DNA of 64,000 bases from a virus (IMGVR_UViG_3300039183_000005:64001-128000); one strand, 5' to 3'. Numbered from the stretch's first letter, positions 12,534 to 47,040 are shown. Program-made: numbers and translations. Notes: generated by a model from the sequence alone, not told the origin.

Positions 12534-12556
12534 ACTATTGTAACATAAGAACTTAT

Positions 12557-12603: not shown

Positions 12604-12656
12604 GGGGATATAATAGGACACGAAGACTAATATATCGATATTTTTGAAAGTATTTT

Positions 12657-23431: not shown

Positions 23432-24008
23432 AATCACTCCGCATTAATTTAGGTCGTAAATTTTTAATCCTAGAATACCGTTGATTACGACTAAGTTCCA
23501 AATGTTCTAAATTTTCATCAAATTGTGCCTGTAAAAATTCTTTGTCTTCTGACGTAAGATCATCACATAACAAAAGATCATCAAAGACAAAAAATGGCTC
23601 AGATTCGTACGTAGGTTCTTGAAATAACATATGCCAAGGTTCGGTAAAAATAAGTCGGCGTAAATTAGCTAATTTCTCACTGGTGATATTCAATTCTTGA
23701 CATATCTCCTGTTCTGTCTTGCCTTCAGCCAATAATATTTCCAATTGATGAACTTTCTTTTTGATTCTACGTGGCGCAGATATAGTATACATAGCATCTA
23801 ATGCTGCATTTCTCATTGTATTTGCTATTGCTATAATTGCATATGCCTTTAAATTACGATGTTTTTGTTTCTTGCCACGAATCGTTGCTAATGTTAAATG
23901 CCCTATCTGTATGTAATCTTCTTCATTAGCGCAATTACTGGAATAAATAGCAGCAATTCTTTTTGCTAAGCAAACTATGAATTTATCTAAAGACTGCCAT
24001 CTTCCCAT
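23421..24008 (-). CDS. Sigma-70 family RNA polymerase sigma factor-like protein
   Basis: EEDYIQIG region 2, AYA...I...MR, ISAPRR, HTH TEQEICQELNIT. Confidence 0.65.
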   Translation of the reverse strand: MGRWQSLDKFIVCLAKRIAAIYSSNCANEEDYIQIGHLTLATIRGKKQKHRNLKAYAIIAIANTMRNAALDAMYTISAPRRIKKKVHQLEILLAEGKTEQEICQELNITSEKLANLRRLIFTEPWHMLFQEPTYESEPFFVFDDLLLCDDLTSEDKEFLQAQFDENLEHLELSRNQRYSRIKNLRPKLMRSDYGV

Positions 24009-24021
24009 TAATGTTCATTTC

Positions 24022-24438
24022 TTAAAACGGAATATCATCATTATCGACAGGAGGCGGCGCTGACATAGTATTAGTAGTTGACGATTTTGATTCGCCAGAT
24101 TTCTTCTTTCCATTCTTTTCGCACAATTGAAAATCTCGAATAGTTACGGAATATGCTACTCGCTTCTGACCATCCTTTTCCCATGAATCCTGCTTCATAT
24201 ATCCGCATACATAAATCGGCTGACCCTTCTTAACCAACTCCATCATTTTTTCAGCACGAGTACCCCAAACTTGAGCGCGTAAAAAACATGCCTCCTGTTG
24301 CCATTTTTGATCCCTATCCTGATAACTCCGATTGAATGCCAAATTAACGGTACACACAGATGTCCCATTCTGTCCAACACTTCTTAGTTCTGGGTCTGCC
24401 GTTGCGACACCCACACCAAATACACCTAATTCTGCCAT
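24022..24438 (-). CDS. ssb: Single-stranded DNA-binding protein
   Basis: ADPELR, OB-fold motifs, C-terminal DDIPF tail. Confidence 0.95.
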   Translation of the reverse strand: MAELGVFGVGVATADPELRSVGQNGTSVCTVNLAFNRSYQDRDQKWQQEACFLRAQVWGTRAEKMMELVKKGQPIYVCGYMKQDSWEKDGQKRVAYSVTIRDFQLCEKNGKKKSGESKSSTTNTMSAPPPVDNDDIPF

Positions 24439-24478
24439 TTTATTATCCTTTACACAAGTAGACTGACCAATTCTTCTT

Positions 24479-24510
24479 ATTATACGTTAAAGTCTAATAT
24501 TTGTTTCATA
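24479..24510 (-). promoter_or_regulatory. Putative phage promoter TATGAAAC-N18-TATAAT upstream of ssb
   Basis: One of four intergenic copies with an identical 18-nt spacer. Confidence 0.65.
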
Positions 24511-24513
24511 AAA

Positions 24514-26361
24514 TTACATTAATTTTTGCATGTCGCGAATTATAAAGCTACCATTTTTTTTCTCTCCGTAGATTAAACATATCAGATCATCCTTACAAAA
24601 TGCTTTTAGTCGCCCAAACGCATCGGGAAATACCACAGCATGATCAATCGAATATGTAGAATCGGATATAGTCAAAAAACACATGGGTTGCCCTGGATTA
24701 CTACCTCTCTTTGTTTTCGTATGTTTTACTCTATCTATAATGGCACAAACCACAATAGATTCGTTATTCGGAGCTTTAGCTATTTCTAAACAAGTATGAG
24801 TTGCTAGACTATCATCCGCATCATCTGCTGGTGAACATGATAAAGCTATTCCTAAGAAATGTTTCTCTGCTGTTGCATTCGCGGCATTACTATCTTCTAT
24901 TGGATTTTCCAGCATAGCCGCTTTCGCTGCTATTATTTTTCGCCTGTTATCGCTTGCGCATGGAGGTTTAACAACATCGTCTCGGTAGCCATTTTCAAGC
25001 ATTAATTCTTCTATTTTTTTCTTAGTCCTACTACCTATTCCGTCTAGCCATGTCTTCTTCTCAGCTAAAGATGTGCATACAAATTTACTATCTCCATCCC
25101 TAATGCCGTCAAATGCCGAATCAGCTTGATCTAAGTAATTAACTGCGGCGGTTACAAGTTCTTTTTTTGTCATTTGGCTCAAAGTTTTTGTTTTACTTCC
25201 TGGCGGTTGGGCCATTTGATTTAAGATTTCTTGTGTTGACATTTCGCCCTGTTTTAATTGCTCAAAAAAATAAATTTTCTCTTTATTTGTTAGGCCCTTA
25301 ATTTCTATTTTTTTACCAGTTGAATCGTGTCCGGTGGTGCCAAGAATAACTTCTAATTCTCGAACCATTTCACTACGACCCATATTATAACAATCGCAAG
25401 CGCCAGCTTTAATTAGTGCTATACCAACATTGCGATGAAAGTCTGGAACTGCTGACAAAAAATTGGCCCAAGTATCTAGAGAGTCCTTTCCTGACGTTTC
25501 TGAGGCCGCTGTGACAATCTTTTGAATAGCAGATGTCCCAACACCCCTAATATGCGCTAGGCCGAAAGCAACGCCATTTTGTGGTTTTGGAGTCATCTGA
25601 AAATGAATGTTTCCACGTCGAATATCAGGTGGAAGAATTTCCACTCCAAATAATCTTGCGTCCTGTACTAATTTATAAATTTCTTCTTTTGGATCACCCT
25701 TGTATTGTGAATAGGTAAGATAGCTGGTGAAAAATTCTTGTGGAAAGTGACATTTAATCCAAGCCGTTTGATAAGCTATAAATGCATAAGATACAGCATG
25801 ACTTTTATTGAATGAATATCGTTGACACTTTTCTATCCATCCAAAAATTTCTTCTGCAATACCACGAGCAATTTTACTATGCTTTTGAGCCCCATTGACA
25901 AATCTATTTTTAAGTTTCGCCATAAGTTCCGGCTTCTTTTTGCCTATGGCTTTTCTTAATTCGTCAGCAACTTCAAGACTAAATCCAGCAATATCTGTAG
26001 CAATTTTGATCGCCTGTTCTTGATAAACGAGACAACCATATGTAGACTCAAGAATCGGCTTTAAGGATTGATGTAGATATACGTGTTTTTTCCTTCCAAA
26101 TTTAATGTCTACATAATCTTGAGTCATCGAACTTTCAAGGGGTCCAGGTCTTAAGAGAGCAGTTAATGCGGCAAGTTCTTCTATATTTTGTGGTTTTACT
26201 TTCTTAGCCCAATCTTGACCTAGATTTTTTTCAAGTTGAAAAACTCCAACGGTATGGCCACCACCAATTAACCGCCATACAGCGGGGCAATCCAGGGGAA
26301 TATCGTTTACACTAAATTTACCTTTCTCGACCTTGCATTTGCAATTTGTAAATTCGATCAT
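24514..26361 (-). CDS. dnaE: DNA polymerase III alpha subunit, C-terminal half (fingers, HhH, OB) of a split DnaE
   Basis: IPLD...GVFQLE, LLRPGP, YQEQAI, LRKAIGKK, YSFNKSHAVSY, FGLAHIRGVG, OB-fold MCFLTISD. Confidence 0.95.
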   Translation of the reverse strand: MIEFTNCKCKVEKGKFSVNDIPLDCPAVWRLIGGGHTVGVFQLEKNLGQDWAKKVKPQNIEELAALTALLRPGPLESSMTQDYVDIKFGRKKHVYLHQSLKPILESTYGCLVYQEQAIKIATDIAGFSLEVADELRKAIGKKKPELMAKLKNRFVNGAQKHSKIARGIAEEIFGWIEKCQRYSFNKSHAVSYAFIAYQTAWIKCHFPQEFFTSYLTYSQYKGDPKEEIYKLVQDARLFGVEILPPDIRRGNIHFQMTPKPQNGVAFGLAHIRGVGTSAIQKIVTAASETSGKDSLDTWANFLSAVPDFHRNVGIALIKAGACDCYNMGRSEMVRELEVILGTTGHDSTGKKIEIKGLTNKEKIYFFEQLKQGEMSTQEILNQMAQPPGSKTKTLSQMTKKELVTAAVNYLDQADSAFDGIRDGDSKFVCTSLAEKKTWLDGIGSRTKKKIEELMLENGYRDDVVKPPCASDNRRKIIAAKAAMLENPIEDSNAANATAEKHFLGIALSCSPADDADDSLATHTCLEIAKAPNNESIVVCAIIDRVKHTKTKRGSNPGQPMCFLTISDSTYSIDHAVVFPDAFGRLKAFCKDDLICLIYGEKKNGSFIIRDMQKLM

Positions 26362-26366
26362 ACCAT

Positions 26367-26398
26367 ATTATACCTCTAAATTCACCTGCTGTTCCATA
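26367..26398 (-). promoter_or_regulatory. Putative phage promoter TATGGAAC-N18-TATAAT upstream of the dnaE C-half
   Basis: Conserved motif and spacing; TATAAT ends 5 nt before the ATG. Confidence 0.65.
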
Positions 26399-26401
26399 AA
26401 G

Positions 26402-27229
26402 TTAAAAATTTTCGTATGCCAGAGCAATAGTCTTTAATATGCCTCCAATCTTTGGCGATAGGACCGATAACTGATAAAACAACGGTGTTTGCACAGCAGC
26501 TAAGATTTCTGGCTTATGAATTCGATAACCTCTGGCACCTTGAAGTCCTTTGATTCCACCACATTCAGCTAAACGAATATGTGTACCGTGATGGTTTGAC
26601 GTTGCGAGAGATGGCCAATATGTATCGGATAGATTGCCTGGTGGTTCTCCAAGGTCAGATTCTATAATTATTCGTAATAGTAGCTGTTCGTTAAAACCCT
26701 GTTCTGGAAAATCTATTGAACCATCTTTAAGCCTTGAACGATATTTATTTATTAGTGGCCTAATAGCTTCGAACCATTCTTTTGGCTTAATCACATGAAT
26801 TCCACCAAGTCGTCTAGGTCCGGCCTGTAGTGGACGAATAAAATTACTATATGGGATTCCCAACTCATTACAATGTGCAAGATGTTGATCCATATATGAT
26901 GGAATCTCTCGGTAAATTGCCATATCAACATCGCCGATGGACATACAATCATACTGATCGAATGATGGTTCATACACGAGCCATCGCAAGCATTTGATTG
27001 TATTAGCATCTGTATGTGTATATTCAGGAAATGCTCGTTCTCGAATTTCGAAATTGCCAGACAGCAAAGTGAGCATTTGGCGAATATTGTCCATCAAGTT
27101 TTCGTCAAGCAAAATTAATTTATGTGCCTTCGGATATGCTCGATTGAGGAAGTATAGGAACCACGGTATATATTTTTGGTATGGTTTATTAGCAACGGTC
27201 ATAAAACACATTCTACTTTCGTCAGCCAT
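26402..27229 (-). CDS. Putative GT-A fold glycosyltransferase
   Basis: LRWL...SIGDVD (DxD), NEQLL; cluster context. Confidence 0.55.
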   Translation of the reverse strand: MADESRMCFMTVANKPYQKYIPWFLYFLNRAYPKAHKLILLDENLMDNIRQMLTLLSGNFEIRERAFPEYTHTDANTIKCLRWLVYEPSFDQYDCMSIGDVDMAIYREIPSYMDQHLAHCNELGIPYSNFIRPLQAGPRRLGGIHVIKPKEWFEAIRPLINKYRSRLKDGSIDFPEQGFNEQLLLRIIIESDLGEPPGNLSDTYWPSLATSNHHGTHIRLAECGGIKGLQGARGYRIHKPEILAAVQTPLFYQLSVLSPKIGGILKTIALAYENF

Positions 27230-27975
27230 TAAATATTCATTGCCTTTCTAAAAATTTGTCCAATCAAAGTCGAAGAGTTCAACAATTGTTGTTCGGTCAT
27301 ATTAAGTATTGGACTGCGAGTCTGTTTAAACATTTGATGATATAACATAAATCCATATACTTCTTGTGTAGAATACTTATCAAGGCATTCTATCCCGTCA
27401 AATAAATATGCATTCCAGGAGGCAATGGGCATAATCATTTTACAGTCAAGGTGATGATACTTCTGTCCTCTGACGGCATGACGAATTACCGCTGGGCCGA
27501 GACTGCCCCACTGAAAGACATGACCTTCTGGATGAAGCTCCAACATATGATCTATATACGCCGCCGCTTTTGTGATTATCTTTCCCTTTGGTTCAGACAC
27601 CAATAAGCCACTTTCTGGCTCTCCATATTTGAGTGATGGAGATGCTGTTGCTATCAAATCTATCCCATCCCTCAATAGTTCAAACATTGGAAAAAGACTT
27701 TTGAATAGAACCAAGTCGGAATCTAGCCAGATGCCACCATGCTCTGCTAAAAGATGGTATCTTAAATAATTCGATTTATTGTTAATTTGCGCAATTTTGA
27801 AGAAACTATCTGGTATATTTGGTAGGAATTGCTTTACATTTTCTGGGGTAACCAAATAAATATCAAAATCATTCCCACAGTGTTTAGATATTATCTTCCA
27901 GCAAAGCTGGACATATGCCGGAGGTTCTGATTGTCCTGGTGGGTTTTCCCAAAATAGCCATATTGCATTTTGCAT
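27229..27975 (-). CDS. Capsular polysaccharide synthesis protein / GT32-like glycosyltransferase
   Basis: IWLFWE, KSNYLRYHLLAEHGGIWLDSD, WGSLGP. Confidence 0.85.
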   Translation of the reverse strand: MQNAIWLFWENPPGQSEPPAYVQLCWKIISKHCGNDFDIYLVTPENVKQFLPNIPDSFFKIAQINNKSNYLRYHLLAEHGGIWLDSDLVLFKSLFPMFELLRDGIDLIATASPSLKYGEPESGLLVSEPKGKIITKAAAYIDHMLELHPEGHVFQWGSLGPAVIRHAVRGQKYHHLDCKMIMPIASWNAYLFDGIECLDKYSTQEVYGFMLYHQMFKQTRSPILNMTEQQLLNSSTLIGQIFRKAMNI

Positions 27976-27987
27976 TACATATTCCCT

Positions 27988-28563
27988 TTATCTTAATACT
28001 GATGGTAATAACATGTGTCGATAGTCTCCAGCATAAATATGTAGATTGCTAATGCCTTCGGCCTTTAGTCGTTCTCGCAATTCATCTTCTTGATGTTTTG
28101 CTGTAGGAGATTTTCTAACATCGAAATCTATTAACACAGCTTTTACCTTATTGTATTCTCCAGAATCGAGTAGATTCGTGACAATAGAACATTCACTTCC
28201 TTCGCAATTCAATTTCAAAAATACTTCATCTTCTTTTGATATATTATTTCTAAACCACTCTGAAGCTTCAACAAAATAACACAAGTCATCTTTCTTCTGT
28301 GGATTACAGGTTGTTTGGTAATCATCCCAAATCGTTCCACCTTGTGAACCAGAGTTATGCAGTATCATATCGCACGTTTTAGAGAACAGCCCAAAGCCGC
28401 AAACTGTTACTTTCGGATTATTGTCAAATTTTCGGTGCAATATTTTTAGACATACAGGAGATGGTTCAAAAGTAAATATATGATCTATTTTAAATCGTGG
28501 TTGCAACAATAATTCCACTGTTTGCCCTTCGTGCCCTCCGACATCAAGGAATATTCGACTCAT
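27988..28563 (-). CDS. FkbM family methyltransferase
   Basis: FLDVGGHEG, FEPSP, LKLNCEGSE. SD GGAGG before MSRIF. Confidence 0.85.
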   Translation of the reverse strand: MSRIFLDVGGHEGQTVELLLQPRFKIDHIFTFEPSPVCLKILHRKFDNNPKVTVCGFGLFSKTCDMILHNSGSQGGTIWDDYQTTCNPQKKDDLCYFVEASEWFRNNISKEDEVFLKLNCEGSECSIVTNLLDSGEYNKVKAVLIDFDVRKSPTAKHQEDELRERLKAEGISNLHIYAGDYRHMLLPSVLR

Positions 28564-29407
28564 GCCATTTCCTCCAATCCGTATAAACAAAACGAGCTAA
28601 AAAAACATCGTCATGTATATGAAATGCAAATTTTAATTTGGGCAATAAGCCCGTGACTTTAAGTTGCTTAAAAGCAAATTCATGATTTGACGGCACACCC
28701 TGCCTAAGAAAAGTTTCTATGTTTTTATATAAGTTACCGAATTTATCCATAATTTCAGAACCACCAAAAAACCAATAATCGGCCAGTGCTTGATAATGTG
28801 GGTTATGTGGGTATCCGATATGGGTATGATGAAGTGTCGGATCATTTTTCTTATTCCATCCGTGGAAAAACCAATCTTCGTGTCTAATGCCTTGTCCGTT
28901 TGGCATCTTCATTACACACCAATTTGATGCATAAAAATTATTTGGATCAAATTGATCGAAATGCACGTCTGTAAGCCAAGCTACATCAAATCGTCCGATC
29001 ATAACCATATCATATTTGAATCCATGCTGTTGTTCATAATTTCGCTTAAGCTTCATGCACTGATAAATACTATACCATCTAGCAATCGTAATCTGCGTTT
29101 TGGAGGTAACGCCATCGGGATAATCCTTATCGACCATACCTCCTTTAATGTTAAATTTTGGATCATGTTCAAACATAGCGTCTTTTGGATTATATGCCTC
29201 TATTAGCGATTGTTTTACTTCGATACTTGGCGTGTGCATAAATACGTCTATATCGTTATGGGCGAACAGATGCTTTTTGTAGTGTTCAAAACCCCTTTCC
29301 CACTCAACGGGCGTTCTCTTTCCTGTCTTGCCATTCCACATTTGGCCACCCACAACCTTTTTGCCGGGGTGTGAAGCCATACCGTTTAAACATAGTGCTA
29401 TTTTCAA
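28544..29407 (-). CDS. Putative glycosyltransferase-like protein
   Basis: KIALCLNG, DVFMHT, RWYS, YDMVMIGRFD, DYWFFG pattern common in viral glycan clusters. Confidence 0.55.
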   Translation of the reverse strand: MKIALCLNGMASHPGKKVVGGQMWNGKTGKRTPVEWERGFEHYKKHLFAHNDIDVFMHTPSIEVKQSLIEAYNPKDAMFEHDPKFNIKGGMVDKDYPDGVTSKTQITIARWYSIYQCMKLKRNYEQQHGFKYDMVMIGRFDVAWLTDVHFDQFDPNNFYASNWCVMKMPNGQGIRHEDWFFHGWNKKNDPTLHHTHIGYPHNPHYQALADYWFFGGSEIMDKFGNLYKNIETFLRQGVPSNHEFAFKQLKVTGLLPKLKFAFHIHDDVFLARFVYTDWRKWHESNIP

Positions 29408-30120
29408 AACAACCTCCTTGCTGTTCCTATTCCATAATCTGGGAATTTTTCATTAATCATTTTGTCATTCACTAATTGTTTGTTGAACAAAGTTTCATCA
29501 ATTGCATCAAATACTGCTTTCGGACCTATGTGAATATTTGTATCACGCATAATAACAGTACCGAATGGTGATAAAAATTCCGTGAAACACCAATCATTGA
29601 TAGTCATTTCTATTGAATGATCACCATCAATCATAAGCAAATCTATTGTTGACATTCCAAGTTTTAACATATATTCCCGTATTCTATGTCTGAATTTGGA
29701 ATCAATAGTTATGGTGTATATGTTTTGGGCTGGATTGTTTATAGCAGAATTATCATTTATGTCGACACCAAGATACACGCAATTACAATGTTTTTCTTCT
29801 AATATGGCTCTGGTTGTTGACAATAATGGTTCTTGATATACATTTATTCCAATTTCCAATATATTTTTAGTTGATGGTAGCACTAAACTTCTTATTAGAT
29901 CGGTATGAACTTTTCTTACAGATGGTCCGTTGTGAACTAGAGGTATATTTGGTTCTATATTCGATTCAATGCACATTGGTAATCCAAAACCCTCCCCAAC
30001 ACGTGTAAACATTCTTTGCTCTTTATCGGAATACTCTGGTTCTATTGTTGGACAATATTTTAGACCATGAATTATAGATGGTTTTCTTTTCCAGTTTCGC
30101 ATCATATCTTTTTCTGACAT
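29404..30120 (-). CDS. Class I SAM-dependent methyltransferase (Methyltransf_24-like)
   Basis: ILEIG, GVD, IDLLMIDGDHS, GTVIMRD. Confidence 0.8.
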   Translation of the reverse strand: MSEKDMMRNWKRKPSIIHGLKYCPTIEPEYSDKEQRMFTRVGEGFGLPMCIESNIEPNIPLVHNGPSVRKVHTDLIRSLVLPSTKNILEIGINVYQEPLLSTTRAILEEKHCNCVYLGVDINDNSAINNPAQNIYTITIDSKFRHRIREYMLKLGMSTIDLLMIDGDHSIEMTINDWCFTEFLSPFGTVIMRDTNIHIGPKAVFDAIDETLFNKQLVNDKMINEKFPDYGIGTARRLF

Positions 30121-30122
30121 TT

Positions 30123-30716
30123 TTACTCCAATACTTTAAATATCTTACGTTCTTCTCCGGATGTAGTCATATCTACAAAAGAAACTACTTCACACTTTCT
30201 ATTGAATTTAGATACCCATTCGTTAAATGCCTTTTCTTCGTGATCATTAAATTCTGGATCATGTTTATAGAACCATTCATCAAAAACAATAATAGTTCCA
30301 TTTACAATGTAATCATTTAAAGTCCACAGTACTTCTTTCGCAGAACTGTAAATGTCTGAGTCAATATGTAATAATGCAATCGGCTGTGCAGTTTTCAAAT
30401 ATTCAGGTAATGTATCGGAAAACCATCCAACATAGAATTTTACACCGTCTATTTGTGGTACCTCGCCATCTGTAGAAAAATATCCAGGTGGCACAACTTC
30501 CTTTCCGTTTTTGTCAATCCATGGTTCTGGCAGACCAGCGAAAGAATCGAATCCAAACACCAGAAACGAATTATCTAGCGTCTGCCTTATGGTGCGAATA
30601 GTATCGCCCCTACAAACACCGAATTCTAAAACGTGTTTATATCGATCGTTTAATAGTGTGAGTCCATATTGCAAGCTAGAATATTTCACGACAAGACCTT
30701 TCTTTATAGATATCAA
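30123..30716 (-). CDS. TylF/MycF family sugar O-methyltransferase
   Basis: LEFGV, GFDSFAGLPE, GWFSDTL, ALLHIDSDIYSS, IVFDE. Start may be GTG 30689. Confidence 0.85.
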   Translation of the reverse strand: MISIKKGLVVKYSSLQYGLTLLNDRYKHVLEFGVCRGDTIRTIRQTLDNSFLVFGFDSFAGLPEPWIDKNGKEVVPPGYFSTDGEVPQIDGVKFYVGWFSDTLPEYLKTAQPIALLHIDSDIYSSAKEVLWTLNDYIVNGTIIVFDEWFYKHDPEFNDHEEKAFNEWVSKFNRKCEVVSFVDMTTSGEERKIFKVLE

Positions 30717-31344
30717 ATACTTTACTAAAATTAGCTAAAAATTCTTGATCTTCAGTTGAAACATCAAACGGTTTATTATTGGGCGGATGCCAGCCAACTG
30801 TTTTTGTTATTGTAAACGATGATTTTCTTTTCCATCCGAGTCGTTGTTGAACCTTATCAAGAATAACTTCTTGGTCTTTTCGCATTTGTTCATAGGTTAT
30901 GGTCAAATCTGCATACGACAACCAAAACATATTTGTTAACAACCATAATTCTGGTGGCGTTGCGAGTTGGTCCTGTATCCAACTTCTTCTTGGTTGAGAT
31001 ACTATTTTGTCATCAAAATAAATTTTGCAATCACCTGTTATTCTAGGCATTTTTCTATATGGCGTTCTTATAAAATCTGAAAAATTATTTAATTTAATAC
31101 CATTTCGTTCTCTCATTCTAAATACAGACATTAAAACGTGTTGGATATTGCGGCTACAATGAAATATATATGCTCGTCTAAATTTTTCTCGTATCTCGGT
31201 ATCAAATTTATGTCCACCAAACATATCCATATACTTTTTATATGGAGTGACGAAATTGTCAAATATAGTTTTTAGTACCCAATGTGTTCCGCTTCTTGGA
31301 TGTGTAACCAGTCGCAATCTGTCTTTCTTAAATTTTGGCTTCAT
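30676..31344 (-). CDS. Sulfotransferase domain protein
   Basis: PAPS-binding loop THPRSGTHW, RN...VLMS, ITYEQM. Confidence 0.75.
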   Translation of the reverse strand: MKPKFKKDRLRLVTHPRSGTHWVLKTIFDNFVTPYKKYMDMFGGHKFDTEIREKFRRAYIFHCSRNIQHVLMSVFRMRERNGIKLNNFSDFIRTPYRKMPRITGDCKIYFDDKIVSQPRRSWIQDQLATPPELWLLTNMFWLSYADLTITYEQMRKDQEVILDKVQQRLGWKRKSSFTITKTVGWHPPNNKPFDVSTEDQEFLANFSKVFDIYKERSCREIF

Positions 31345-32905
31345 TATTAACCTCTAAAAGATTCATTAACATCAATTTTCCCAAATGAAACAACATATCG
31401 GCATATGGCTGGTGATGCAGTACTGCTATATTTAAATAAATCAAAGCAGTTAAAACTTCTACTTTATGAAAATCATAGTGATTTTTTATGAGATATTTAC
31501 GAAACCAGGCTTCGCAATCAATAAGCGTTTGTCGCCTAAGTAGATCAAAATTAACTATATTACCATCTACATTAGCTTTATATAAACCATTGCGTATGAT
31601 ACCATGCGCAACAATTAGACCATGCCGCAATTTGGCCAGATCATAGTATATATCTCCGTAACCTATAAGACCACCAAAATTTTGTCGCCAGTCTAGCAGC
31701 TTAAAATCATTACCAGTATCTATTGTATTTTCAAAATGTAAATCACCGTGAAATCTTACTGGAATACCTTCCGATATCCATTTCCAGTTTACGCTATTGA
31801 GTAATTCTTTTATTGGTGGAACAACAACACTATTAATACATTGTGATGAATCTCTGCGACAAAATCGTTCAAAATATTCCCGTACTCGCCGAAATGTTTT
31901 GTCTTGATAAAATTTACGGTAGATTTCTCTTACTTCGACGGTAAGAAGTTGTCGATCTTCCCATAAACCTTCCAACCATTCTAAAAAGTCTTTAAATCTA
32001 GATAAAGTAATAGTGTCAGATAATACTTTACCATTTACTTTTCTATAACAATACATATTTTGTGTACTGTTTTCTATCTGTGGAATATATCCATTTAAAG
32101 ATAATTTAGCTCGCTGTACTCTTTGTGCTATAAATTTTTTATCAGTAGAAAATTTAATAACACGATTATTACAAAACCAAATATGTTCTTGTGTTTTTGG
32201 TAAGATATTTGGATCATCTTCTTTGCTAAATATTTTATTAGCACAATTCAACGCTTCAACAGTACCGGTGTCATACCACGTAAATTTTATTCCATGTACG
32301 GGTTGATTTTTTATCATTAACGCTAATGCAAATGATTCTCCCTGATTGATTGTTCCTTCTTCTAGTGCTTGGTCCATAGCAATCCAAAATGTTCTATAAT
32401 CATTGATACCACAAACGCCAACATATGCTTTTGCTTCTGTGTGGTCCCCCTTTTCCCCTATGTTTTTAATTATGGTATTATCCCAAGAATCAACAACGAC
32501 TGAACGATAATCATTGCCAGCTCGAATATCTGCATAGCCTATCCAATCACAATCGGGCGGTGGAACATCTTCTGTCACAATAGCATCGTTGGTAAAAAAG
32601 ATAAATGGACATTGCAATATATCTTTATAATTACATAAATCCGCCGTAAGACCCTTTCTCTTAGCCCAAACAAAAGTAAAATTGCGATCAGGATAAGCTA
32701 ATGTGAGAAATTCTTTTACCAATTCCCCTTTGTGTCCTAAGTCGATAATGATTTCTATATCCTTAGGAAACTTTTCTATAATATATGAAATAATGGGGCG
32801 ATTGGCAACTGGAACCAATGTTTTGTTCACATGGTCACAATGATTACCAAGCCTAGAGCCTACACCGGCAGTTGGTATTAATACTTTATATTTATTTGCG
32901 TCCAT
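31328..32905 (-). CDS. Sugar nucleotidyltransferase fused to an APH/choline-kinase-like phosphotransferase
   Basis: IPTAGVGSRL...NKTLVPV, WYDTG; C-terminal FHGDLHFEN, LLDWR, GDIYYDLAKL. Confidence 0.85.
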   Translation of the reverse strand: MDANKYKVLIPTAGVGSRLGNHCDHVNKTLVPVANRPIISYIIEKFPKDIEIIIDLGHKGELVKEFLTLAYPDRNFTFVWAKRKGLTADLCNYKDILQCPFIFFTNDAIVTEDVPPPDCDWIGYADIRAGNDYRSVVVDSWDNTIIKNIGEKGDHTEAKAYVGVCGINDYRTFWIAMDQALEEGTINQGESFALALMIKNQPVHGIKFTWYDTGTVEALNCANKIFSKEDDPNILPKTQEHIWFCNNRVIKFSTDKKFIAQRVQRAKLSLNGYIPQIENSTQNMYCYRKVNGKVLSDTITLSRFKDFLEWLEGLWEDRQLLTVEVREIYRKFYQDKTFRRVREYFERFCRRDSSQCINSVVVPPIKELLNSVNWKWISEGIPVRFHGDLHFENTIDTGNDFKLLDWRQNFGGLIGYGDIYYDLAKLRHGLIVAHGIIRNGLYKANVDGNIVNFDLLRRQTLIDCEAWFRKYLIKNHYDFHKVEVLTALIYLNIAVLHHQPYADMLFHLGKLMLMNLLEVNNEAKI

Positions 32906-33239
32906 AATCATCTTTAACACGAACTACATCGTCCAATTCTGGAGTCGATGTCTCTAGATATATTACGTCAGTTATTCCTTCCATACGATGTGTTCTACCA
33001 GGAACAATAGTATGGCAATCTCCAGGATTTAAAACTATATCTTCCCAAGTTGAATCCGAACCTTCAAAATTTGTGGTGAATAATAATGTACCACTTATTA
33101 CCAAAATTGTTTCCCTTTTTTGTTCGTGATATTGTAAACTACAGCGATTTCCAGCTTTCATAAATAGTCGTTTTACAACGTACTTATCGTTAACTTCTAA
33201 AATTTCTTCATAACCCCATGGCTTTTCTATTCTTTTCAT
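32892..33239 (-). CDS. Cupin protein (mannose-6-phosphate isomerase type II C-terminal-like)
   Basis: EKPWGYE, SLQYHEQKRET, HRM, ETSTPELDDVVR. Confidence 0.85.
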   Translation of the reverse strand: MKRIEKPWGYEEILEVNDKYVVKRLFMKAGNRCSLQYHEQKRETILVISGTLLFTTNFEGSDSTWEDIVLNPGDCHTIVPGRTHRMEGITDVIYLETSTPELDDVVRVKDDYGRK

Positions 33240-33243
33240 ATTA

Positions 33244-34284
33244 TTATCCTAACGCAAATAAATAATGTTCAATTACCTTGCTTATCTCATTAACTATATT
33301 TTCCTTGATATTAATTTTTTTAGCCAATTTTTCAACTAACTCCTGATATGTTGACCCATTAAAATGGTAATGACCAGCAATAAGTGTAAATAACATCCAC
33401 TGCGGATTAGTCGAAAACCAGTCTACATTAAATCCGCGAACAACAGCAATGCGTGATTGATCAACCCATTTGCGCCATCGATCACCATTCATGACTTCTG
33501 AAACAAATTTCCGTGTGTCAATACCATAAATCAGAGCTTGCGACAATACATAGTTTGTTTGTACAACACCGAGCTGTGGCGCTATATTAACTGCATCAAC
33601 AACTCCCTTTCTCCAATTTATATCTTCTGTACTTAGGTAATCTGCATTATGTTCCTTTAATTTCACATTAAGGGTTTTTAATTCATAATGTATTATGCCA
33701 GTATGATACACTTTGAAGTTGCTAGTATTATGAATTTCTCGCACTAGGCTTCCAGTTTGCACGACATAAAAGAGAGGGTTAGCCACTTGCTGACACGTTT
33801 TAACGTCTGAAACAATTTTGTCCACATCTGTTTCTGTCACGCCGATATTTTCATCTGTACCAATTTCAAACATTACATCTGATTTAATTCCAATAGCAAA
33901 TTTCATCAATTCTTGGGTATGCCGTAATTTTTCTTCGTGCGATACTTTCATGTGGCATAAGTCAATATGAATCAAATCGAATCCATTTTCTAGGTCGTTT
34001 CGTATAGTTTCTCTTGTCGCATCTAAATTGTATTCTGGTTCCAATCCAAAACCTGGACCACAATGATCGCGACAGATCATAATTTTTGCTTTTCGATATT
34101 TTCTGCGCATTTTGGCTACATATTCAACATATTCTTTTGTGGTAAAAACATATCCATTTTTTGCATTGACTTGATTGCGAGAACAAATTAGCATTAATGG
34201 TTGCTTAAATTTATGAGAATACCTAAAAACAGCTTCAACAACTTCTTTACTCATCGGTCCACAGGCTAACTTAGATATTGACAT
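33244..34284 (-). CDS. GatZ/KbaZ-like (tagatose-6-phosphate epimerase/aldolase family) protein
   Basis: SRNQV...GY, RDHCGP, IHID, EIGTDE, KEHNADY, NIAPQLG. Confidence 0.75.
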   Translation of the reverse strand: MSISKLACGPMSKEVVEAVFRYSHKFKQPLMLICSRNQVNAKNGYVFTTKEYVEYVAKMRRKYRKAKIMICRDHCGPGFGLEPEYNLDATRETIRNDLENGFDLIHIDLCHMKVSHEEKLRHTQELMKFAIGIKSDVMFEIGTDENIGVTETDVDKIVSDVKTCQQVANPLFYVVQTGSLVREIHNTSNFKVYHTGIIHYELKTLNVKLKEHNADYLSTEDINWRKGVVDAVNIAPQLGVVQTNYVLSQALIYGIDTRKFVSEVMNGDRWRKWVDQSRIAVVRGFNVDWFSTNPQWMLFTLIAGHYHFNGSTYQELVEKLAKKINIKENIVNEISKVIEHYLFALG

Positions 34285-34642
34285 CGGTCATACCCTCATT
34301 TCGTTTCAAGTTAACACATGCCGCTGTTTTCCCTTTACGATCAAGTTTTACGTCATTAATTACCACACGTTGTCCCCGTGGCAGATTCATTATTAAATTA
34401 TGATAATGCAAATCTACCTCATTCAATTGTTGCTCTGTAATCAATCTAAGACTTTCTGGCCGACCAGTTGTTAAGATAATAGTATATCCCTTTCTAATCC
34501 ACTCACAGAATTTGTCCTTTACTCCTGGTAGTACCACTGGTTTTTGGGTCGCTATGGCTAGTTTACCAGGATGGAAAAAAATACAACCATCGATATCGCA
34601 AAAAATTGTTTTGACATGAATTGCATGGTCAATTCGTGACAT
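34271..34642 (-). CDS. HAD-superfamily phosphatase
   Basis: FCDIDG, TTGR, VVIND. Confidence 0.85.
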   Translation of the reverse strand: MSRIDHAIHVKTIFCDIDGCIFFHPGKLAIATQKPVVLPGVKDKFCEWIRKGYTIILTTGRPESLRLITEQQLNEVDLHYHNLIMNLPRGQRVVINDVKLDRKGKTAACVNLKRNEGMTDVNI

Positions 34643-36974
34643 TTACAGGCTCCTCGTCAAAAATTTCATTTCCATTATCTTCGTTTATTAAATCCTGAGC
34701 TTTCCAAAGTTTATCCAATGCTGTAACTCCAAGAAGATCAAATTTAACAGCACCCATAGCTTCAGCGCTTGACATTTCTAAACCAACTACACGATCCTTA
34801 TTTTTAACATCATATACTAGTGGAACCAATTCTGCTATTGGTCTATCTGCAATTACAACTCCAGCGGCATGTTTTGATTGAGATTTTTTAGTTCCTTCAA
34901 TTCTCATCGCTTGGTCAAATAATGGTTTATACCATTCGTAGGCGTCCTGAACTTGTTCTACATGATGTATAGCCCACTGTAAAATACCGTAATTATCACC
35001 CTGTTCTTCTCTGGCTTGTCTCAATTCATCTGCTATCGTTGCTTCGTCTGGAATATGCTGTGTAATATCGTTGCATAAATCATGAGGTGTCATATTTACA
35101 TCATCTGGACTTTTCCCTTCTTTCACAGCTTTAACTTTCATAAGACGCTTTACTTCATCAGGATTAGCTCTGAATACCTCTTTGAGTGCTGCCTTTCCCT
35201 GTAGTCGTCCAAATGTAATCATTTGCGCCACATATTCTTCGCCCCATCGCTTTTTGAGATAGGAAATAACTTCACTGCGGAATATAACGCCTATATCTGT
35301 GTCTATGTCTGGGAGGCTAATGTGGCCATCATGGGTTTTAACCTTTTTATTTATATCAAGCTCATTACGTCCAGCTAATGTCAACCCAAGTCCACATGCT
35401 AAGTGAGAATTTGAAAGATTATCGGCAGGTTTTTCTTTGATCATATCGAATAGATACATCCACATACGTGGGTTCTTTTTATCAATCCATTCGACTTCTT
35501 CTCTCATGGTATCTGTAAATTCTACTTTTCCCCATTTTATTCGTCTAGCAAGATGCATGGCCACAGCTTTGCGCTCAGCATCAACATCTCTAGTATGCAA
35601 CATTTCGAAGTTATCAGACATCCACGACATAAAATCAATTGATCCTACATCGAAATGCGGCGGAATATTACGACTTACGTTATAGAATCGTTCAAAGTAA
35701 AGACCATATTCGATTGGATCAATTCCAGTAATCCCTGTCAAATAATTAACTAACGATCCAGCACCAGAGCCACGCCCCTTACCTCTTGGGCCGTTACGGC
35801 TATCAATAAACTTACAAACATCCCAAACAATAAGGAAGTAATCTGCCAGTCCAGCTTCTTGTATAACGATTAATTCTTTTTGTAATCGATCCCAATAGAT
35901 TTTTTTCTGTCTAGAATCTAGATTGGCAAGTTTTGACTTAGCCCCCTCTATACATAAGTACTTAAGGTAGGCGTTGGAATCAAGTCCTAGTTTAGTAGCT
36001 TCTTGATTTGTAAATACTGGTAGATACGGATTGTGTCCAAGCGACGAATATTCTATTCGATCAGCAATATTTAGCGTTGCTTGAAGTTCCGCTTCGGTAA
36101 ATTTTTTGCGCATTTCTTCATATGATGGAATGTAGTAGTTATCTGAAATGAAAAAATCCATTACGTCACCAGTCTGTTGTCTCCTTCTTTCTTGATCTTC
36201 CTTAGTTGTGTGGAGCTGTGCGCACAACAATAGTCGTTGATCTTCTGCATCTTCTCTTTTACAATAATGAGCATCAATTGTAGCTACTGTTGGAACTCCT
36301 GTTTCTTTGCTTAATTCCCTTAAGCACTCTACTACTACTGTTTGAATTCCCATCCCCTCATCTTGTAGTTCTAAATAATAGTTGTCTGCCCCGAAAATTG
36401 ATATATGTTTTTGGATAATCGCTTTGCCAACATCTTTCCAGTTTGGTTTAAGATATTTTCTTGCCTCGGAAACGTTGTTGTTATGACCAGCTATAATAGC
36501 GGCTTTAAAATCTACAAACAGAGATGTAGGCAACTCTCCTGCAATACACGCCGTCAGGAAAATAAAATTTCCACGCTTAGCAAACGGAGCAATGCCTTCT
36601 AAGTGTATACGTGGTTTGCGGTAAAAATAGTCCGGCCTGTTCATTTCCGAAACCAAAGCCATCAAATCTTTAATTCCATTATCATTTTTTGCTAGAATAA
36701 TAAGATGATATCTTTTGTTGTTTTCTGTTGTTTTGATATCGGCTTCCAGTGGACAAATATATGCTTCTATTCCAATAATTGGTTTAATTTTTTTCTTTTT
36801 TGCTGCGTCGTAAAATGCTTTCATACCGGCAATCGATCCATGATCTGTCAGCGCACATTCCGGCAGACCTAATTCTACGCATCGATTTACGATATCTTTT
36901 GGGGATGGTACTCCATCAAGAAGGCTATAGTACGAATGAAGGTGGAGTGGAATATATACAGTTTGACTCATCAT
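34629..36974 (-). CDS. dnaE: DNA polymerase III alpha subunit, N-terminal half (PHP + palm/thumb) of a split DnaE
   Basis: LHLHSYYSLLDG, LTDHG, DAHY, GRGSGAGSLV, LPDIDTD, SKHAAGVVI, VKFDLLG, then a stop. Confidence 0.95.
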   Translation of the reverse strand: MMSQTVYIPLHLHSYYSLLDGVPSPKDIVNRCVELGLPECALTDHGSIAGMKAFYDAAKKKKIKPIIGIEAYICPLEADIKTTENNKRYHLIILAKNDNGIKDLMALVSEMNRPDYFYRKPRIHLEGIAPFAKRGNFIFLTACIAGELPTSLFVDFKAAIIAGHNNNVSEARKYLKPNWKDVGKAIIQKHISIFGADNYYLELQDEGMGIQTVVVECLRELSKETGVPTVATIDAHYCKREDAEDQRLLLCAQLHTTKEDQERRRQQTGDVMDFFISDNYYIPSYEEMRKKFTEAELQATLNIADRIEYSSLGHNPYLPVFTNQEATKLGLDSNAYLKYLCIEGAKSKLANLDSRQKKIYWDRLQKELIVIQEAGLADYFLIVWDVCKFIDSRNGPRGKGRGSGAGSLVNYLTGITGIDPIEYGLYFERFYNVSRNIPPHFDVGSIDFMSWMSDNFEMLHTRDVDAERKAVAMHLARRIKWGKVEFTDTMREEVEWIDKKNPRMWMYLFDMIKEKPADNLSNSHLACGLGLTLAGRNELDINKKVKTHDGHISLPDIDTDIGVIFRSEVISYLKKRWGEEYVAQMITFGRLQGKAALKEVFRANPDEVKRLMKVKAVKEGKSPDDVNMTPHDLCNDITQHIPDEATIADELRQAREEQGDNYGILQWAIHHVEQVQDAYEWYKPLFDQAMRIEGTKKSQSKHAAGVVIADRPIAELVPLVYDVKNKDRVVGLEMSSAEAMGAVKFDLLGVTALDKLWKAQDLINEDNGNEIFDEEPVNVTN

Positions 36975-37680
36975 CTCTCCTTATGTGTTTGATGTTTTTT
37001 TATACGATCTATGGTGACAATATGTACGTTGAACAGTTTAGCAATTTCTTTTGAAGAAACTTGTTTTTTAATCAATAATCTAATTTCCGTCAAATCATCT
37101 GTTGTTAATTTAGAACTACCAATATTAATACGATTTTTAATTGATAATCCATGAGTTAAATGTTTCCACAATCTCCCATTTTCAATATTTGATATTGTTG
37201 ATTGACTTACATTGAATTGTTTTGCTATTTGATGTTGAGGCATACCATTCGCTACAAGTTTCAGAATCTCTATTACATGTTTTTCATGAAGTTTAGAATT
37301 ACCATTTTTTGGCCACGACTTATATCTGGATTATTAGAAAACCAATGGTTACCATCCTTTATCATATCTTGCATATTATTTTGATGAGTATCCCATCTTA
37401 AATTCTCTATTGAATTATTTTCAGAATTACCATCATTGTGACAAACTTCCATATTATTTACACGAGGCCCAACAAAAGCTAATAATATCAACTGATGAAC
37501 ATAAAATTTTGTTTTAATTTTATTTTTCCACAATGAAACCATTAATCTATATTTATTTCCATTTTTGTTTTTCCATGGTTTTAATATTTTATTGCGTAAT
37601 ATGCTTTTTATTCTACCAGAATTAGAAGCTTGATACAATCCTTCATACCCAGGAATATCTTTCCATTGTTCTTTATCCAT
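36971..37680 (-). pseudogene. NUMOD4-HNH homing endonuclease, frameshifted at an A6 run (37305-37310)
   Basis: WKDIPGYEGLYQASNSG and HNH motif. One extra A joins RGQK to NGNSKLHEKHVIEILKL and ORF 36971..37243, matching paralog 48774..49277 (RGQRNGKSKL). Confidence 0.8.
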
Positions 37681-38632
37681 TAGCTATCTCCACGGATTTA
37701 CCAGTGATCACTTGGTCTCCACAGTCAAAACCAGCGTACCGATCCTCAACATACTCACTTCCCAATGTGTGTAAATCACTCCATATTCTATCGCATATAC
37801 CATTATTATTAAAGCCACACATCCGACAAGTCCATTTTCGATTACGTCTTACCAAAGTGTCTTTTTTTATTGTTGTAAAAAAACGATGGAGAGCAGCTAT
37901 AGTCATAGCTATATCTTCCTGGGACAAAGCAATTGTTATTGGGCCACCATCGTTAGTATAGTAGAAGGTAATAAGAATGTTTTTATATTTAGGGTATAGG
38001 AAATATGCTGCTAAATGATATAATCTTGATTGAACTTCTCTCATTAACAATACTTCGTCCATTGGTTTTTGAGTATAAAAATCCTTTCGGTTTCCTGTCT
38101 TCCAATCAACAATTTCAATAGTTTCTTCGTCAAGCTCATGAACAAGGTCGATAAAACCACGAACAGCAAATTGATGTGGCTTACCATCTTTATCTTGGCA
38201 TAGCCATTCTTCTCCTGGCAGTTCTATTGCGAACCAACGCTCTATATCAATAATACCGTTGAGGTTATATGGATTATAAAATGGATCATCTAATACAGTT
38301 TCTAACGCAATCCTACACTTTTTGAAATCAGCAGCTTCTTTATATTCACCAGTATTTTTATCAATTCGAGTAGTCACGCGACGAATAATAACTTCTGGCG
38401 ATTTGGCCGTCAGTTCATCCCATGCACGATTCAATAACCACATTGGATCAACATTTGTTTTACCACGTTTGCGAAGCCTAGCCATCCACTCTAGTGTTTG
38501 GTGAACAATTTTACCCTGCAAGGCCGCTTTTCCGGTACCTGATTCTATTCCCAATATATATTGAAGAAAATAGGAAAACGGACAATGGTTATATAATTTA
38601 ATTGCACTTGCACTACATTTAACCACTCTCAT
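37673..38632 (-). CDS. PD-(D/E)XK nuclease, Cas4/RecB-like with 4-Cys cluster
   Basis: SASAIKLYNHCP, GFIDLV, IVDWKTG, CRMC...C. Confidence 0.85.
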   Translation of the reverse strand: MRVVKCSASAIKLYNHCPFSYFLQYILGIESGTGKAALQGKIVHQTLEWMARLRKRGKTNVDPMWLLNRAWDELTAKSPEVIIRRVTTRIDKNTGEYKEAADFKKCRIALETVLDDPFYNPYNLNGIIDIERWFAIELPGEEWLCQDKDGKPHQFAVRGFIDLVHELDEETIEIVDWKTGNRKDFYTQKPMDEVLLMREVQSRLYHLAAYFLYPKYKNILITFYYTNDGGPITIALSQEDIAMTIAALHRFFTTIKKDTLVRRNRKWTCRMCGFNNNGICDRIWSDLHTLGSEYVEDRYAGFDCGDQVITGKSVEIANG

Positions 38633-38636
38633 TATG

Positions 38637-39326
38637 TCAATCCCCGGAAGTTTGTTCTTGTCTCATTCTTTTCAGCTCATAATTTATATCTATATTAGAT
38701 AGTTTATTATGTGATGCTTGTTTCCATTCCTCAATTCTTGGAGTCACATCATCTAAATCTGTTCTTCCAATGATAGTAAAATGTAGAATACATGCCGCAT
38801 TAAAAAAGATTGCACTAAGATGGTCTTCGTCTGTCATATCGTTCATAACAGCAAATATATGTCTCATCAAACTAGCATGAAAAACGCTTAATGGCATTCC
38901 CTTGGACCAATTCCATGGGTCATATTTTTTGGCACCACCACCATAATGATTGGCAAGACGTAAATATGTCTTTGGTGAAATTAAATGTAAACCACCGTAT
39001 GAATTATCTGGTATTTTCAAAAAACGATCTGTTTCCTGGTTTCTGATAGCTTCTAGGACAATCCATATCAGTTCTAATAAAAGATCGTTATTGACTGTTT
39101 CTCCCCATGATAATCCTAAATTCCACATGATTAATTTCAAATCATTACTAATAGATTCTGGTAAATCTCTAATCATCTTTTTGCGCGGATAAAAATCAAT
39201 TACTTTACGAATCACTGTCATTGGTATCAGATCAAATCGTGGTTTATCGTGATCAACATCCCTTTTGGCTCCGGTATCAAAATCACGTCTTTCACCAGAG
39301 TCCTTAATATCAAATCGATTCGACAT
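38637..39326 (-). CDS. dATP/dGTP diphosphohydrolase domain protein (DUF5664-like)
   Basis: FDTGAKRD, KPRFDLIP, GAKKYDPWNWSKG, SLMRH, EDHLSA. Start MSNRF. Confidence 0.8.
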   Translation of the reverse strand: MSNRFDIKDSGERRDFDTGAKRDVDHDKPRFDLIPMTVIRKVIDFYPRKKMIRDLPESISNDLKLIMWNLGLSWGETVNNDLLLELIWIVLEAIRNQETDRFLKIPDNSYGGLHLISPKTYLRLANHYGGGAKKYDPWNWSKGMPLSVFHASLMRHIFAVMNDMTDEDHLSAIFFNAACILHFTIIGRTDLDDVTPRIEEWKQASHNKLSNIDINYELKRMRQEQTSGD

Positions 39327-40482
39327 TTTCCATCTCCATCCTATAACTATCCGACAATATTTTTGACTTAGATGTTTGCTGCAAAATAGGACCAATTTTT
39401 TCTGCTATATCGTCTGGCAACATTTCCCCAATATCTTTTACATCATCTGGTGTAATACAAAATACTCTAAAATAATGCGTCAAATCTTGTTCTAATTTCA
39501 CCATAGCCCTTTTGCCAGCTTCATCATTATCAACCGTACAGATAATGGTTAAAGCTCCAGTATTTTGCAACATTAACCGTTGTTGTCGCGACATATTCAG
39601 ACCCAATAAAGCTACACTATTTCGTATACCAGCCATTTCGTAAGCCCACACATCTCCTGGACCTTCACACAAAATTGCTGTACCAGTTTTGCTAATGAAC
39701 GGCTTGGCATACCAAATATTATAAAGGCATGATTCGCCGTGAAAATCTTTGGAGTGTTTCCATTTCGTATATAATCCACTATATTGTGAGTCTGGACACG
39801 ACAATCGTTCTGGGTGATGATGCATTCCGCACTTGGGACATTTATCGTAAATACTTCTACCAGACCAACCCACTACATACCTTCCAGTAATATCTAATAT
39901 CGGGAAAAACGCTCGTTTATACATTGATTTATTTTTGGTGTTGCAAAATGATATATGATACTTAGCAATTATTTCAGGTGATACTCCACGGTTTGGATAA
40001 TATACTTGATCTGGTTTTAATTGAGAAACAACTGTTGCTAGCGGTATCCCTTTTTTTCGTGTTGCTATTTGTCGTTTTTTATGTTGCTTAATAATTTTGG
40101 CTATTTCCACATCTTGGGCAGTTGTAGCATTTTGGTTAAACTCACTTAATCCAAGCGTTTGAGCTACGAAATTAACGGCTTGCTGAAAACTCCATTGCTT
40201 TTCTGTCTTGCGACTCATGGCACCACGAACTAAACCGAATACACTATTTGACGGACCAGTAACAGGGTCGCGATGACATCCCCTAGTTTTACATTGCCAA
40301 TGATTGGATTTAATAGCCCAAAAAACAGCACGGCAATTATCGCCACCATGAACTGGACATGCCATTTGTAAATAGTCGTGTCGTTCCGTGTACTCTATTC
40401 CCATCGAGTCTAAAACTTCGGCTATTCGCTCACAAGCACGATCCTGAATAAAAGATACATCCGAAGACCTAAACCTTTTCAT
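39310..40482 (-). CDS. dnaG: DNA primase (CHC2 Zn finger + TOPRIM)
   Basis: CPVHGGDN, GWSGR, LCEGPGD, DNDEAG. Confidence 0.9.
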   Translation of the reverse strand: MKRFRSSDVSFIQDRACERIAEVLDSMGIEYTERHDYLQMACPVHGGDNCRAVFWAIKSNHWQCKTRGCHRDPVTGPSNSVFGLVRGAMSRKTEKQWSFQQAVNFVAQTLGLSEFNQNATTAQDVEIAKIIKQHKKRQIATRKKGIPLATVVSQLKPDQVYYPNRGVSPEIIAKYHISFCNTKNKSMYKRAFFPILDITGRYVVGWSGRSIYDKCPKCGMHHHPERLSCPDSQYSGLYTKWKHSKDFHGESCLYNIWYAKPFISKTGTAILCEGPGDVWAYEMAGIRNSVALLGLNMSRQQRLMLQNTGALTIICTVDNDEAGKRAMVKLEQDLTHYFRVFCITPDDVKDIGEMLPDDIAEKIGPILQQTSKSKILSDSYRMEMENVESI

Positions 40483-46403: not shown

Positions 46404-46726
46404 TTATTCCACGCCTTAAATAAAACATCTGCTTCTGGAGCATCAATATCATTATCTAGGATATCAAATCCCATTTGATCACTAGGCGCACCTGGATGAA
46501 ATTGTCCAGGAATTTGTTTTACATATGAAAAGCCATTACATTCACAGCACTTTACTGCCACACGTGTTAAGACTTCCGTTTTATTACTCCCGTCAACGGT
46601 GGTTAACTGAAGTACTAAAAGTCTTTTCCCACAGTCGGCACAATCAAAATCAATTAAACCTCTACTTTGTAATCCTTTAAGTTGCTTATCATCTCCGTTA
46701 ACTTGATTTGTTCGAATCTCTGCCAT
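46400..46726 (-). CDS. Zn-ribbon hypothetical protein
   Basis: CADC...CCEC. Confidence 0.55.
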   Translation of the reverse strand: MAEIRTNQVNGDDKQLKGLQSRGLIDFDCADCGKRLLVLQLTTVDGSNKTEVLTRVAVKCCECNGFSYVKQIPGQFHPGAPSDQMGFDILDNDIDAPEADVLFKAWNK

Positions 46727-47040
46727 TAATCTATTTCTCCATATTCTATATATTTTTTCGGATTTTTCAGCACACTCTTATTTATTGGTCCATCTCGCCA
46801 AAATGGTTTTTCATTCTTGTTTTTCCCCTCGCTTAGTCTATCGAGTTTCTTTTTATTACTTCTACCTCCGTGACACGGTGTCTCGGTCCCTTTAATAATT
46901 ACAGCACCACCAATACCTATTAATTTTATTAATTCATGTCTATGACAATCTGGACATTCAATCAATGGTTCGGCGGACATAGCGTGAAATGTCTCAAACG
47001 TGTAACCGCAAGCTTTACATTCGTACTCATAGGTTGGCAT
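46726..47040 (-). CDS. FmdB family zinc-ribbon protein
   Basis: MPTYEYECKACG...CPDC. Confidence 0.85.
   Translation of the reverse strand: MPTYEYECKACGYTFETFHAMSAEPLIECPDCHRHELIKLIGIGGAVIIKGTETPCHGGRSNKKKLDRLSEGKNKNEKPFWRDGPINKSVLKNPKKYIEYGEID

Follow-up and report, generated by a model that had tools for sequence, protein, structure and literature searches.

The window analysed here is a stretch of 64,000 nucleotides, bases 64001-128000 of the 168,332-bp IMG/VR record IMGVR_UViG_3300039183_000005, which comes from an uncultured phage and is rated complete by CheckV. Its DnaE-type DNA polymerase (Pol III alpha) is not a single polypeptide. It is encoded by two open reading frames (ORFs) on the same strand, here called the N-half and the C-half, and the slot between them measures 8,267 bp and holds 11 ORFs of the same orientation. 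We put at roughly 80% the probability that the replicative polymerase of this phage is a Pol III alpha whose two polypeptides assemble non-covalently, an assembly that we infer from the anatomy of the halves, their conservation and the selection acting on them. The split DnaE is the sole DNA polymerase detected in the genome, as searches for PF07733, PF17657, PF00476 (PolA), PF00136 (PolB) and PF00929 (RNase_T) found no second polymerase or proofreader elsewhere in it. An earlier reading made from the sequence alone (the sequence-only reading) had proposed a DnaE in two genes about 8.3 kb apart, without an intein and with an 11-gene glycan cassette between the halves, and both the two genes and their spacing are confirmed. 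Beyond that reading, we find that the split is ancient and very widespread, that the usual occupant of the slot is a DnaQ-like exonuclease, and that the cassette is only one among several cargoes that replace each other.

Anatomy of the split polymerase

The two halves and their main parts, in the direction of transcription, are the following.

34629-36974, minus: DnaE N-half, 781 amino acids, with PHP domain, palm, thumb, first finger helix and acidic tail (Pfam PF02811, PHP, and PF07733, DNA_pol3_alpha)
35325-35669, minus: helical insertion of ~115 amino acids, N-half residues 436-550, right before the PDIDTD catalytic strand
34629-34682, minus: acidic C-terminal tail of the N-half, residues 765-781, with the TGA stop (alignment of ~70 relatives)
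26362-26401, minus: start region of the C-half, 40 nucleotides, with TGGAACA, 17 nucleotides, TATAAT, and GAGG before the ATG
24514-26361, minus: DnaE C-half, 615 amino acids, with fingers, HhH/beta-binding domain and C-terminal OB fold (PF17657, DNA_pol3_finger, and PF14579, HHH_6)
26263-26361, minus: N-terminal head of the C-half, residues 1-33, with Cys7-x-Cys9...Cys33, a predicted beta-hairpin (AlphaFold2, AF2)

The N-half aligns to residues 4-647 of Taq Pol III alpha (2HPI), with Taq 647 falling on N-half residue 774, and the alignment of the C-half begins at Taq 643, or E. coli 583, at C-half residue 15-16 and covers E. coli alpha 583-902. The halves abut at Taq ~643-647 and no DnaE sequence is lost, which bears out the claim of a clean break with nothing missing or duplicated. 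The break is located in a surface linker at the palm/fingers junction, and it falls in the same ~8-residue linker in four divergent lineages. With the fingers of E. coli alpha taken to start at residue 561, in line with its published domain limits, the cut lies ~20 residues into the fingers and the N-half retains the first finger helix. The AF2 models have a mean predicted local distance difference test score (pLDDT) of 88.8 for the N-half, in which the last helix spans residues 751-763 and the tail is disordered, and a pLDDT of 85.9 for the C-half. In Foldseek, the C-half aligns over ~614 columns with the C-terminal portion of the Pol III alpha of M. tuberculosis, Taq and E. coli.

The catalytic motifs are kept on both halves, as the sequence-only reading had stated. 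All three catalytic aspartates, D556 and D558 (PDIDTD) and D746 (KFDLLG), sit on the N-half and are invariant in relatives, and the same half carries all nine PHP metal ligands (H11, H13, D20, H45, E70, H90, C143, D234 and H236). The C-half carries the HhH and OB domains and an intact YSFNKSH motif at residues 182-188. FNKSH-type motifs line the nucleotide-binding site in established DnaE structures, and in the solved enzymes the fingers and the palm aspartates form one active site. Each half alone is without a complete active site. The PHP domain is a probable proofreading domain; its seventh ligand, Cys143 in the N-half, is a His in the exonuclease-bearing lineages described below, and a Cys in the exonuclease-less clade to which the window belongs and in contiguous DnaEs.

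Several features have no equivalent in Taq. The ~115-residue insertion has no Taq counterpart and no Pfam match, is predicted (AF2) to form five helices, and is present in relatives down to 51-58% identity and absent from exonuclease-bearing lineages and contiguous DnaEs; it is specific to the exonuclease-less clade, including relatives with a UDG-family gene in the slot. At the cut itself, the extra sequence amounts to ~17 unaligned residues on the N-half (the acidic tail) and ~15 on the C-half (the head). In ~70 relatives the end of the N-half is conserved through ...DLIN(G) and thereafter variable and acidic, and in the window the N-half and the first cassette gene share 14 nucleotides that include the N-half stop codon. 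The Cys-x-Cys...Cys pattern of the head is conserved across the window's clade, and of 145 related C-half representatives, 98 have a CxC among their first 35 residues; the hairpin may be a metal site. In the window, Cys33 (IPLDC) stands where E. coli IPLDD has its second Asp.

A promoter-like motif of its own had been claimed for the C-half, and this is borne out by comparison: 14 of 16 relatives retain the -35/-10-like pair and the GAGG box, including relatives with another gene upstream. The spacer is a candidate promoter and/or ribosome-binding region and supports independent initiation of the C-half, because the start signals are kept whatever gene lies upstream. The word GGTATAAT is not enriched within the window, and we rejected it as a phage-wide motif. 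It also occurs at 47046-47053 (minus), with the same 5-nucleotide spacing to the ATG of the ORF at 46726-47040, and may be a start signal shared by that ORF and the C-half.

Conservation, distribution and selection

A pattern scan of IMG/VR found at least 595 related stretches, and the survey of related phages gave the same breakpoint with variable intervening cargo. All 70 diverse viral loci with enough flank are split and none is fused; at every such locus the halves co-occur in the same order. For the N-half there are more than 120 90%-identity clusters, and the 120 best, down to 49% identity, are all either ~780 amino acids long without a finger domain or ~1,150 with an intein. For the C-half, 137 of the 150 nearest 50%-identity representatives stand alone and start at the break, and only 8 have any N-half sequence. 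The split is old and shared by a very large group of uncultured phages. Cultured relatives were sought by tblastn in 50,697 phage records, with both halves and a distant C-half as queries; no match exceeded ~38% identity, and the records looked at more closely, one of a gut phage contig and one of a PB1-like phage, have a DnaE that is contiguous across the break.

Both halves are under strong purifying selection, with, in comparisons with relatives, nonsynonymous divergence (pN) of 0.10-0.19 and synonymous divergence (pS) of 0.72-0.87, the synonymous sites being saturated. Neither frequent frameshifts or stops in relatives nor a dN/dS near 1 was seen. Inteins at conserved sites are typical of indispensable proteins, and relatives carry inteins in both halves. 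C-half inteins occur at three sites, after RPGPLE (76/77), near 135-141 and at FNK/SH (186/187), in L016, L018, L021, L025 and L027, and one ORF of 1,289 amino acids has two of them. LAGLIDADG inteins interrupt the N-half in P0009, P0010, P0012 and P0103. The FNK/SH intein site is three residues from the cyanobacterial site. Co-occurrence, purifying selection, the detection of no other polymerase and inteins in both halves support the two-subunit family C polymerase that had been suggested from the sequence.

Some relatives show further rearrangements of the halves. In L007 (IMGVR_UViG_3300031578_000260; 10001-12965), a free-standing HNH endonuclease gene at 11371-12030 (PHROG E 2e-49) cuts the N-half again inside the ~115-residue insertion and gives a three-piece DnaE, which shows the fracture process at work. 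The stand-alone C-halves P0131, P0132 and P0138 have N-terminal NADAR or Macro domains (ADP-ribose-processing folds), which suggests that slot genes sometimes fuse to a polymerase half. In L005 a TGA (4890-4892) stands at the codon of an invariant Trp (FLIVWD) in the N-half, and the near-identical L008, from another sample, has no stop; the TGA is one of three things, a nonsense variant, a sequencing error or a site of read-through.

Alternative readings of the two halves

In the two-subunit enzyme that we favour, subunit N would supply the PHP domain, the palm with its three aspartates, the thumb and the first finger helix, and subunit C the remaining fingers with YSFNKSH, the HhH/clamp-binding domain and the OB fold. 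The last helix of the N-half would dock into the fingers of the C-half, and the new termini may aid assembly, by analogy with the tails of split Aeh1 NrdA (PMC3045599). Certain results weigh against this enzyme. The acidic tail lacks sequence conservation, expression of the halves from start points 8.3 kb apart may be unequal, and a search of the genome with a single family detected no phage clamp or clamp loader. On a quick FastTree tree, which is unrooted in practice, a small number of contiguous DnaEs also lie scattered among the split ones, and well-supported branches force at least four changes of state. Fission or fusion probably happened more than once, or else some gene calls were merged.

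It is unlikely that the halves act apart, with the N-half as a PHP nuclease or minimal polymerase core, the C-half as a DNA- or clamp-binding factor, and no joint enzyme. Separate start signals would suit such a division of labour, as would the fusion of some relatives' C-halves to the unrelated Macro or NADAR domains. However, the halves always co-occur in order at every locus with enough flank, the single active site of solved DnaE structures is built from fingers and palm aspartates together, and the genome has no other detected polymerase.

Joining of the halves after synthesis into a single-chain DnaE, by a split intein, RNA trans-splicing or ribosomal bypass or frameshift, appears very improbable. 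Split-intein DnaE is known in cyanobacteria and among metagenomic 'fractured genes' (PMC2677866), and in the distant relative L029 the halves overlap by 11 nucleotides, so that a frameshift fusion is conceivable there. In the window, however, the ~17 and ~15 terminal residues without DnaE counterpart are far too few for a Hint domain, and a Pfam-type domain search gave no Hint or intein match on either half, in agreement with the earlier observation that Hint fragments are missing. Across 23500-38000, Rfam returned no intron or other RNA family at E<1 apart from one match at chance level. Moreover, 8.3 kb with eleven translated-looking ORFs intervene, and reading through the TGA of the N-half leads to a further stop ~25 codons on.

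We also give very little credence to the two genes as decaying remnants in a phage replicated by the host polymerase. The undetected clamp and clamp loader would fit decay, but purifying selection is strong, no catalytic residue has been lost, hundreds of divergent contigs retain the arrangement, the genes lie within a full DnaB-DnaG-SSB module, and inteins persist at conserved sites; the sequence-only reading had named an intact dnaE elsewhere, with decaying halves, as grounds for refutation, and no second DnaE was detected in the genome. An assembly or binning artefact can be dismissed with near certainty: the record is a metagenomic contig, but the order DnaE_N - cargo - DnaE_C - SSB recurs in contigs from many different samples and sources, and misassembly is excluded because the same split appears in many independent assemblies from different samples.

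Contents of the slot

In 67 of the 70 loci, a DEDD (DnaQ-like) exonuclease-like gene of ~230 amino acids directly precedes the C-half, and is itself frequently preceded by an ORF of 60-80 amino acids, and all four sampled slot exonucleases match Pfam RNase_T (E 1e-9 to 1e-14). Other occupants are found as well. L030 has NT5C and a degenerate exonuclease-like gene, the 6.8-kb content of the slot in L039, L047 and L089 includes an aldehyde dehydrogenase and a class-III aminotransferase among other genes, in addition to the exonuclease, and L035, L037 and L038, the nearest outgroups of the window's clade, have a UDG-family gene. In L094 the slot is loaded with an RCC1-repeat protein of 834 amino acids.

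The window's clade has lost the exonuclease, and its slot is instead a hypervariable island with genes for NDP-sugar synthesis, glycosyltransferases and methyltransferases. The window's slot holds these genes.

34271-34642, minus: gene 1, HAD-like phosphatase (weak Pfam, PHROG and NCBIfam matches)
33244-34284, minus: gene 2, class II aldolase-like (GatZ/KbaZ / FBP aldolase)
32892-33239, minus: gene 3, cupin of the mannose-6-phosphate isomerase C-terminal type
31328-32920, minus: gene 4, sugar-1-phosphate nucleotidyltransferase fused to an APH-like kinase domain
30676-31344, minus: gene 5, sulfotransferase-like (weak, below cut-off)
30123-30716, minus: gene 6, TylF-type O-methyltransferase
29404-30120, minus: gene 7, methyltransferase-like (weak)
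28544-29407, minus: gene 8, DUF7796-like
27988-28590, minus: gene 9, FkbM-family methyltransferase (NCBIfam TIGR01444 above cut-off; PHROG methyltransferase)
27229-27975, minus: gene 10, DXD glycosyltransferase (Caps_synth / Gly_transf_sug)
26402-27229, minus: gene 11, no family match (homologues in 10 relatives)

Most of the 11 ORFs match sugar-enzyme families, although several of these matches are weak and do not reach the curated cut-offs; for two ORFs no library gave a match. On these matches, 'glycan cassette', the term of the sequence-only reading, is a fair label. Gene 4 matches RmlA/GalU/MurU-type NCBIfam models over residues 12-119 and, weakly, Pfam APH over 379-431, and is predicted to serve in NDP-sugar activation. 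Gene 11 is the most widely shared cassette gene of the clade and always adjoins the C-half. No endonuclease was found among the 11 genes by domain and PHROG matches, and profiles from other lineages found no exonuclease or conserved microprotein in the window's slot. The cassette genes probably relate to surface or virion decoration. We also considered DNA base-glycosylation machinery and set it aside as having a low probability, the genome being without a thymidylate-synthase-type hydroxymethylase and without a PurZ-type or TGT/DpdA-type enzyme.

Across the clade the slot ranges from 5.0 to >10 kb in length and has no exonuclease, and its flanks are colinear and 55-90% identical, with at least four unrelated gene sets in between. 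The window's gene set is common, in part or whole, to seven relatives; another cassette, likewise sugar-related, encodes a PfkB sugar kinase, two glycosyltransferases, a radical-SAM/methyltransferase fusion and three more methyltransferases. Similarity of the polymerase and type of cassette do not go together: L009, L016 and L021 have 87-93% identical halves and different cassettes, and L019 is only 63-78% identical, yet carries the window's cassette type. This mismatch indicates exchange of cassettes. The island is probably swapped between phages by recombination, in which the conserved polymerase halves would act as homology arms.

The surrounding replication module

The halves lie in a minus-strand replication module that runs in the window from DnaB through a DnaG-type primase and further genes to the DnaE N-half, the slot, the DnaE C-half and SSB.

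40469-41911, minus: DnaB helicase
39310-40512, minus: DnaG-type primase
38637-39395, minus: dATP/dGTP-diphosphohydrolase-like gene with MazZ-type N-terminal domain, part of the replication module
36971-37680, minus: free-standing HNH endonuclease (NUMOD4 and HNH_3) and helix-turn-helix ORF, directly upstream of the N-half
24022-24438, minus: SSB (Pfam PF00436)

A PD-(D/E)XK nuclease gene lies between the dATP/dGTP-diphosphohydrolase-like gene and the HNH endonuclease. The module has this diphosphohydrolase-like gene, yet the genome search gave no PurZ, TGT/DpdA or thymidylate-synthase-type enzyme. The HNH endonuclease and helix-turn-helix ORF are missing at the corresponding place in several relatives, and SSB always adjoins the C-half downstream. 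Beyond SSB are three genes resembling GT-B-type glycosyltransferases. A LAGLIDADG intein interrupts one of them: the GT-B-like protein conserved beside SSB (20537-23437, minus) has 966 amino acids with its LAGLIDADG/Hint intein, and its intein-free relatives have ~570.

Comparison with known systems

Surveys of DnaE treat the catalytic subunit as a single chain (PMC3919608, PMC12926913), and the PDB matches of the halves are family C replicases solved in that form. The single-chain enzymes (Taq 2HPI/4IQJ, E. coli 2HNH/5FKU, M. tuberculosis 7PU7) share with the phage enzyme the domain order, the Asp triad, the PHP ligands and FNKSH. The phage enzyme differs in its two chains, acidic tail, CxC head, 115-residue palm insertion and genes 8.3 kb apart.

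We found no description in the literature of an intein-less split of a full-length DnaE. The cyanobacterial split DnaE and the metagenomic 'fractured' DnaE are likewise encoded by two genes, but they carry split Hint domains and are trans-spliced to one chain, and in 'fractured genes' a homing endonuclease lies between the halves (PMC2677866). The phage DnaE has no intein, is cut at another site and carries metabolic cargo in the gap. That the break differs from the cyanobacterial one, as the sequence-only reading had it, is confirmed, since the cyanobacterial cut lies just before CFNKSH and YSFNKSH is intact inside the phage C-half.

Closer parallels are gp43A/gp43B of Aeromonas phages 25 and 44RR and NrdA of phage Aeh1, in which, as here, an essential enzyme lies in two ORFs with new sequences at the cut and without an intein. 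The split pieces of phage 25 gp43A/B co-purify and are active (reviewed in PMC2988022), and Aeh1 NrdA-a/NrdA-b depends for its function on the tails newly formed at the cut (PMC3045599). The pieces of these enzymes reassemble non-covalently. They are, however, a family B polymerase or a ribonucleotide reductase, are found in few phages, and have no multi-gene cassette in the gap, which contains no more than a homing endonuclease or a short spacer without translation.

A minimal split Pol III catalytic module, in which two proteins are predicted to reconstitute the enzyme, has been described in T4-like jumbo phages of group 2.2 (Iyer et al. 2021, PMC7824862). That module is a core without PHP and other domains, its genes are distant, and it occurs alongside a family B polymerase. 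In contrast, the phage described here has the full domain set, no detected PolB and a cut at the palm/fingers junction. Nearest of all are the related uncultured phages with the order DnaE_N - DnaQ-like exonuclease - DnaE_C, which have the same break and flanking module; the window's clade differs in having no exonuclease in the slot, and the window's genome in having no RNase_T match. New here are a slot that bears cargo and has no exonuclease, and the turnover of that cargo.

Outlook

A broader idea, which we offer as a speculation more likely wrong than right, is that the break in the replicase would be a protected cargo slot with the halves as homology arms, its whole glycan or other cassettes being swapped between co-infecting phages, much as in capsule or O-antigen loci bounded by conserved genes. 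On this idea the new termini, the acidic tail and the Cys-x-Cys...Cys hairpin, which may bind a metal, would form the docking module that made fission viable.

A large natural group of phages with such a cut would show that the palm/fingers junction is a viable fission point, which is useful for understanding the mechanics of Pol III alpha and for the engineering of split polymerases. The split DnaE also offers a model for how an essential gene can withstand being broken in the absence of an intein. The slot shows how a phage can park fast-evolving accessory genes inside its most conserved module.

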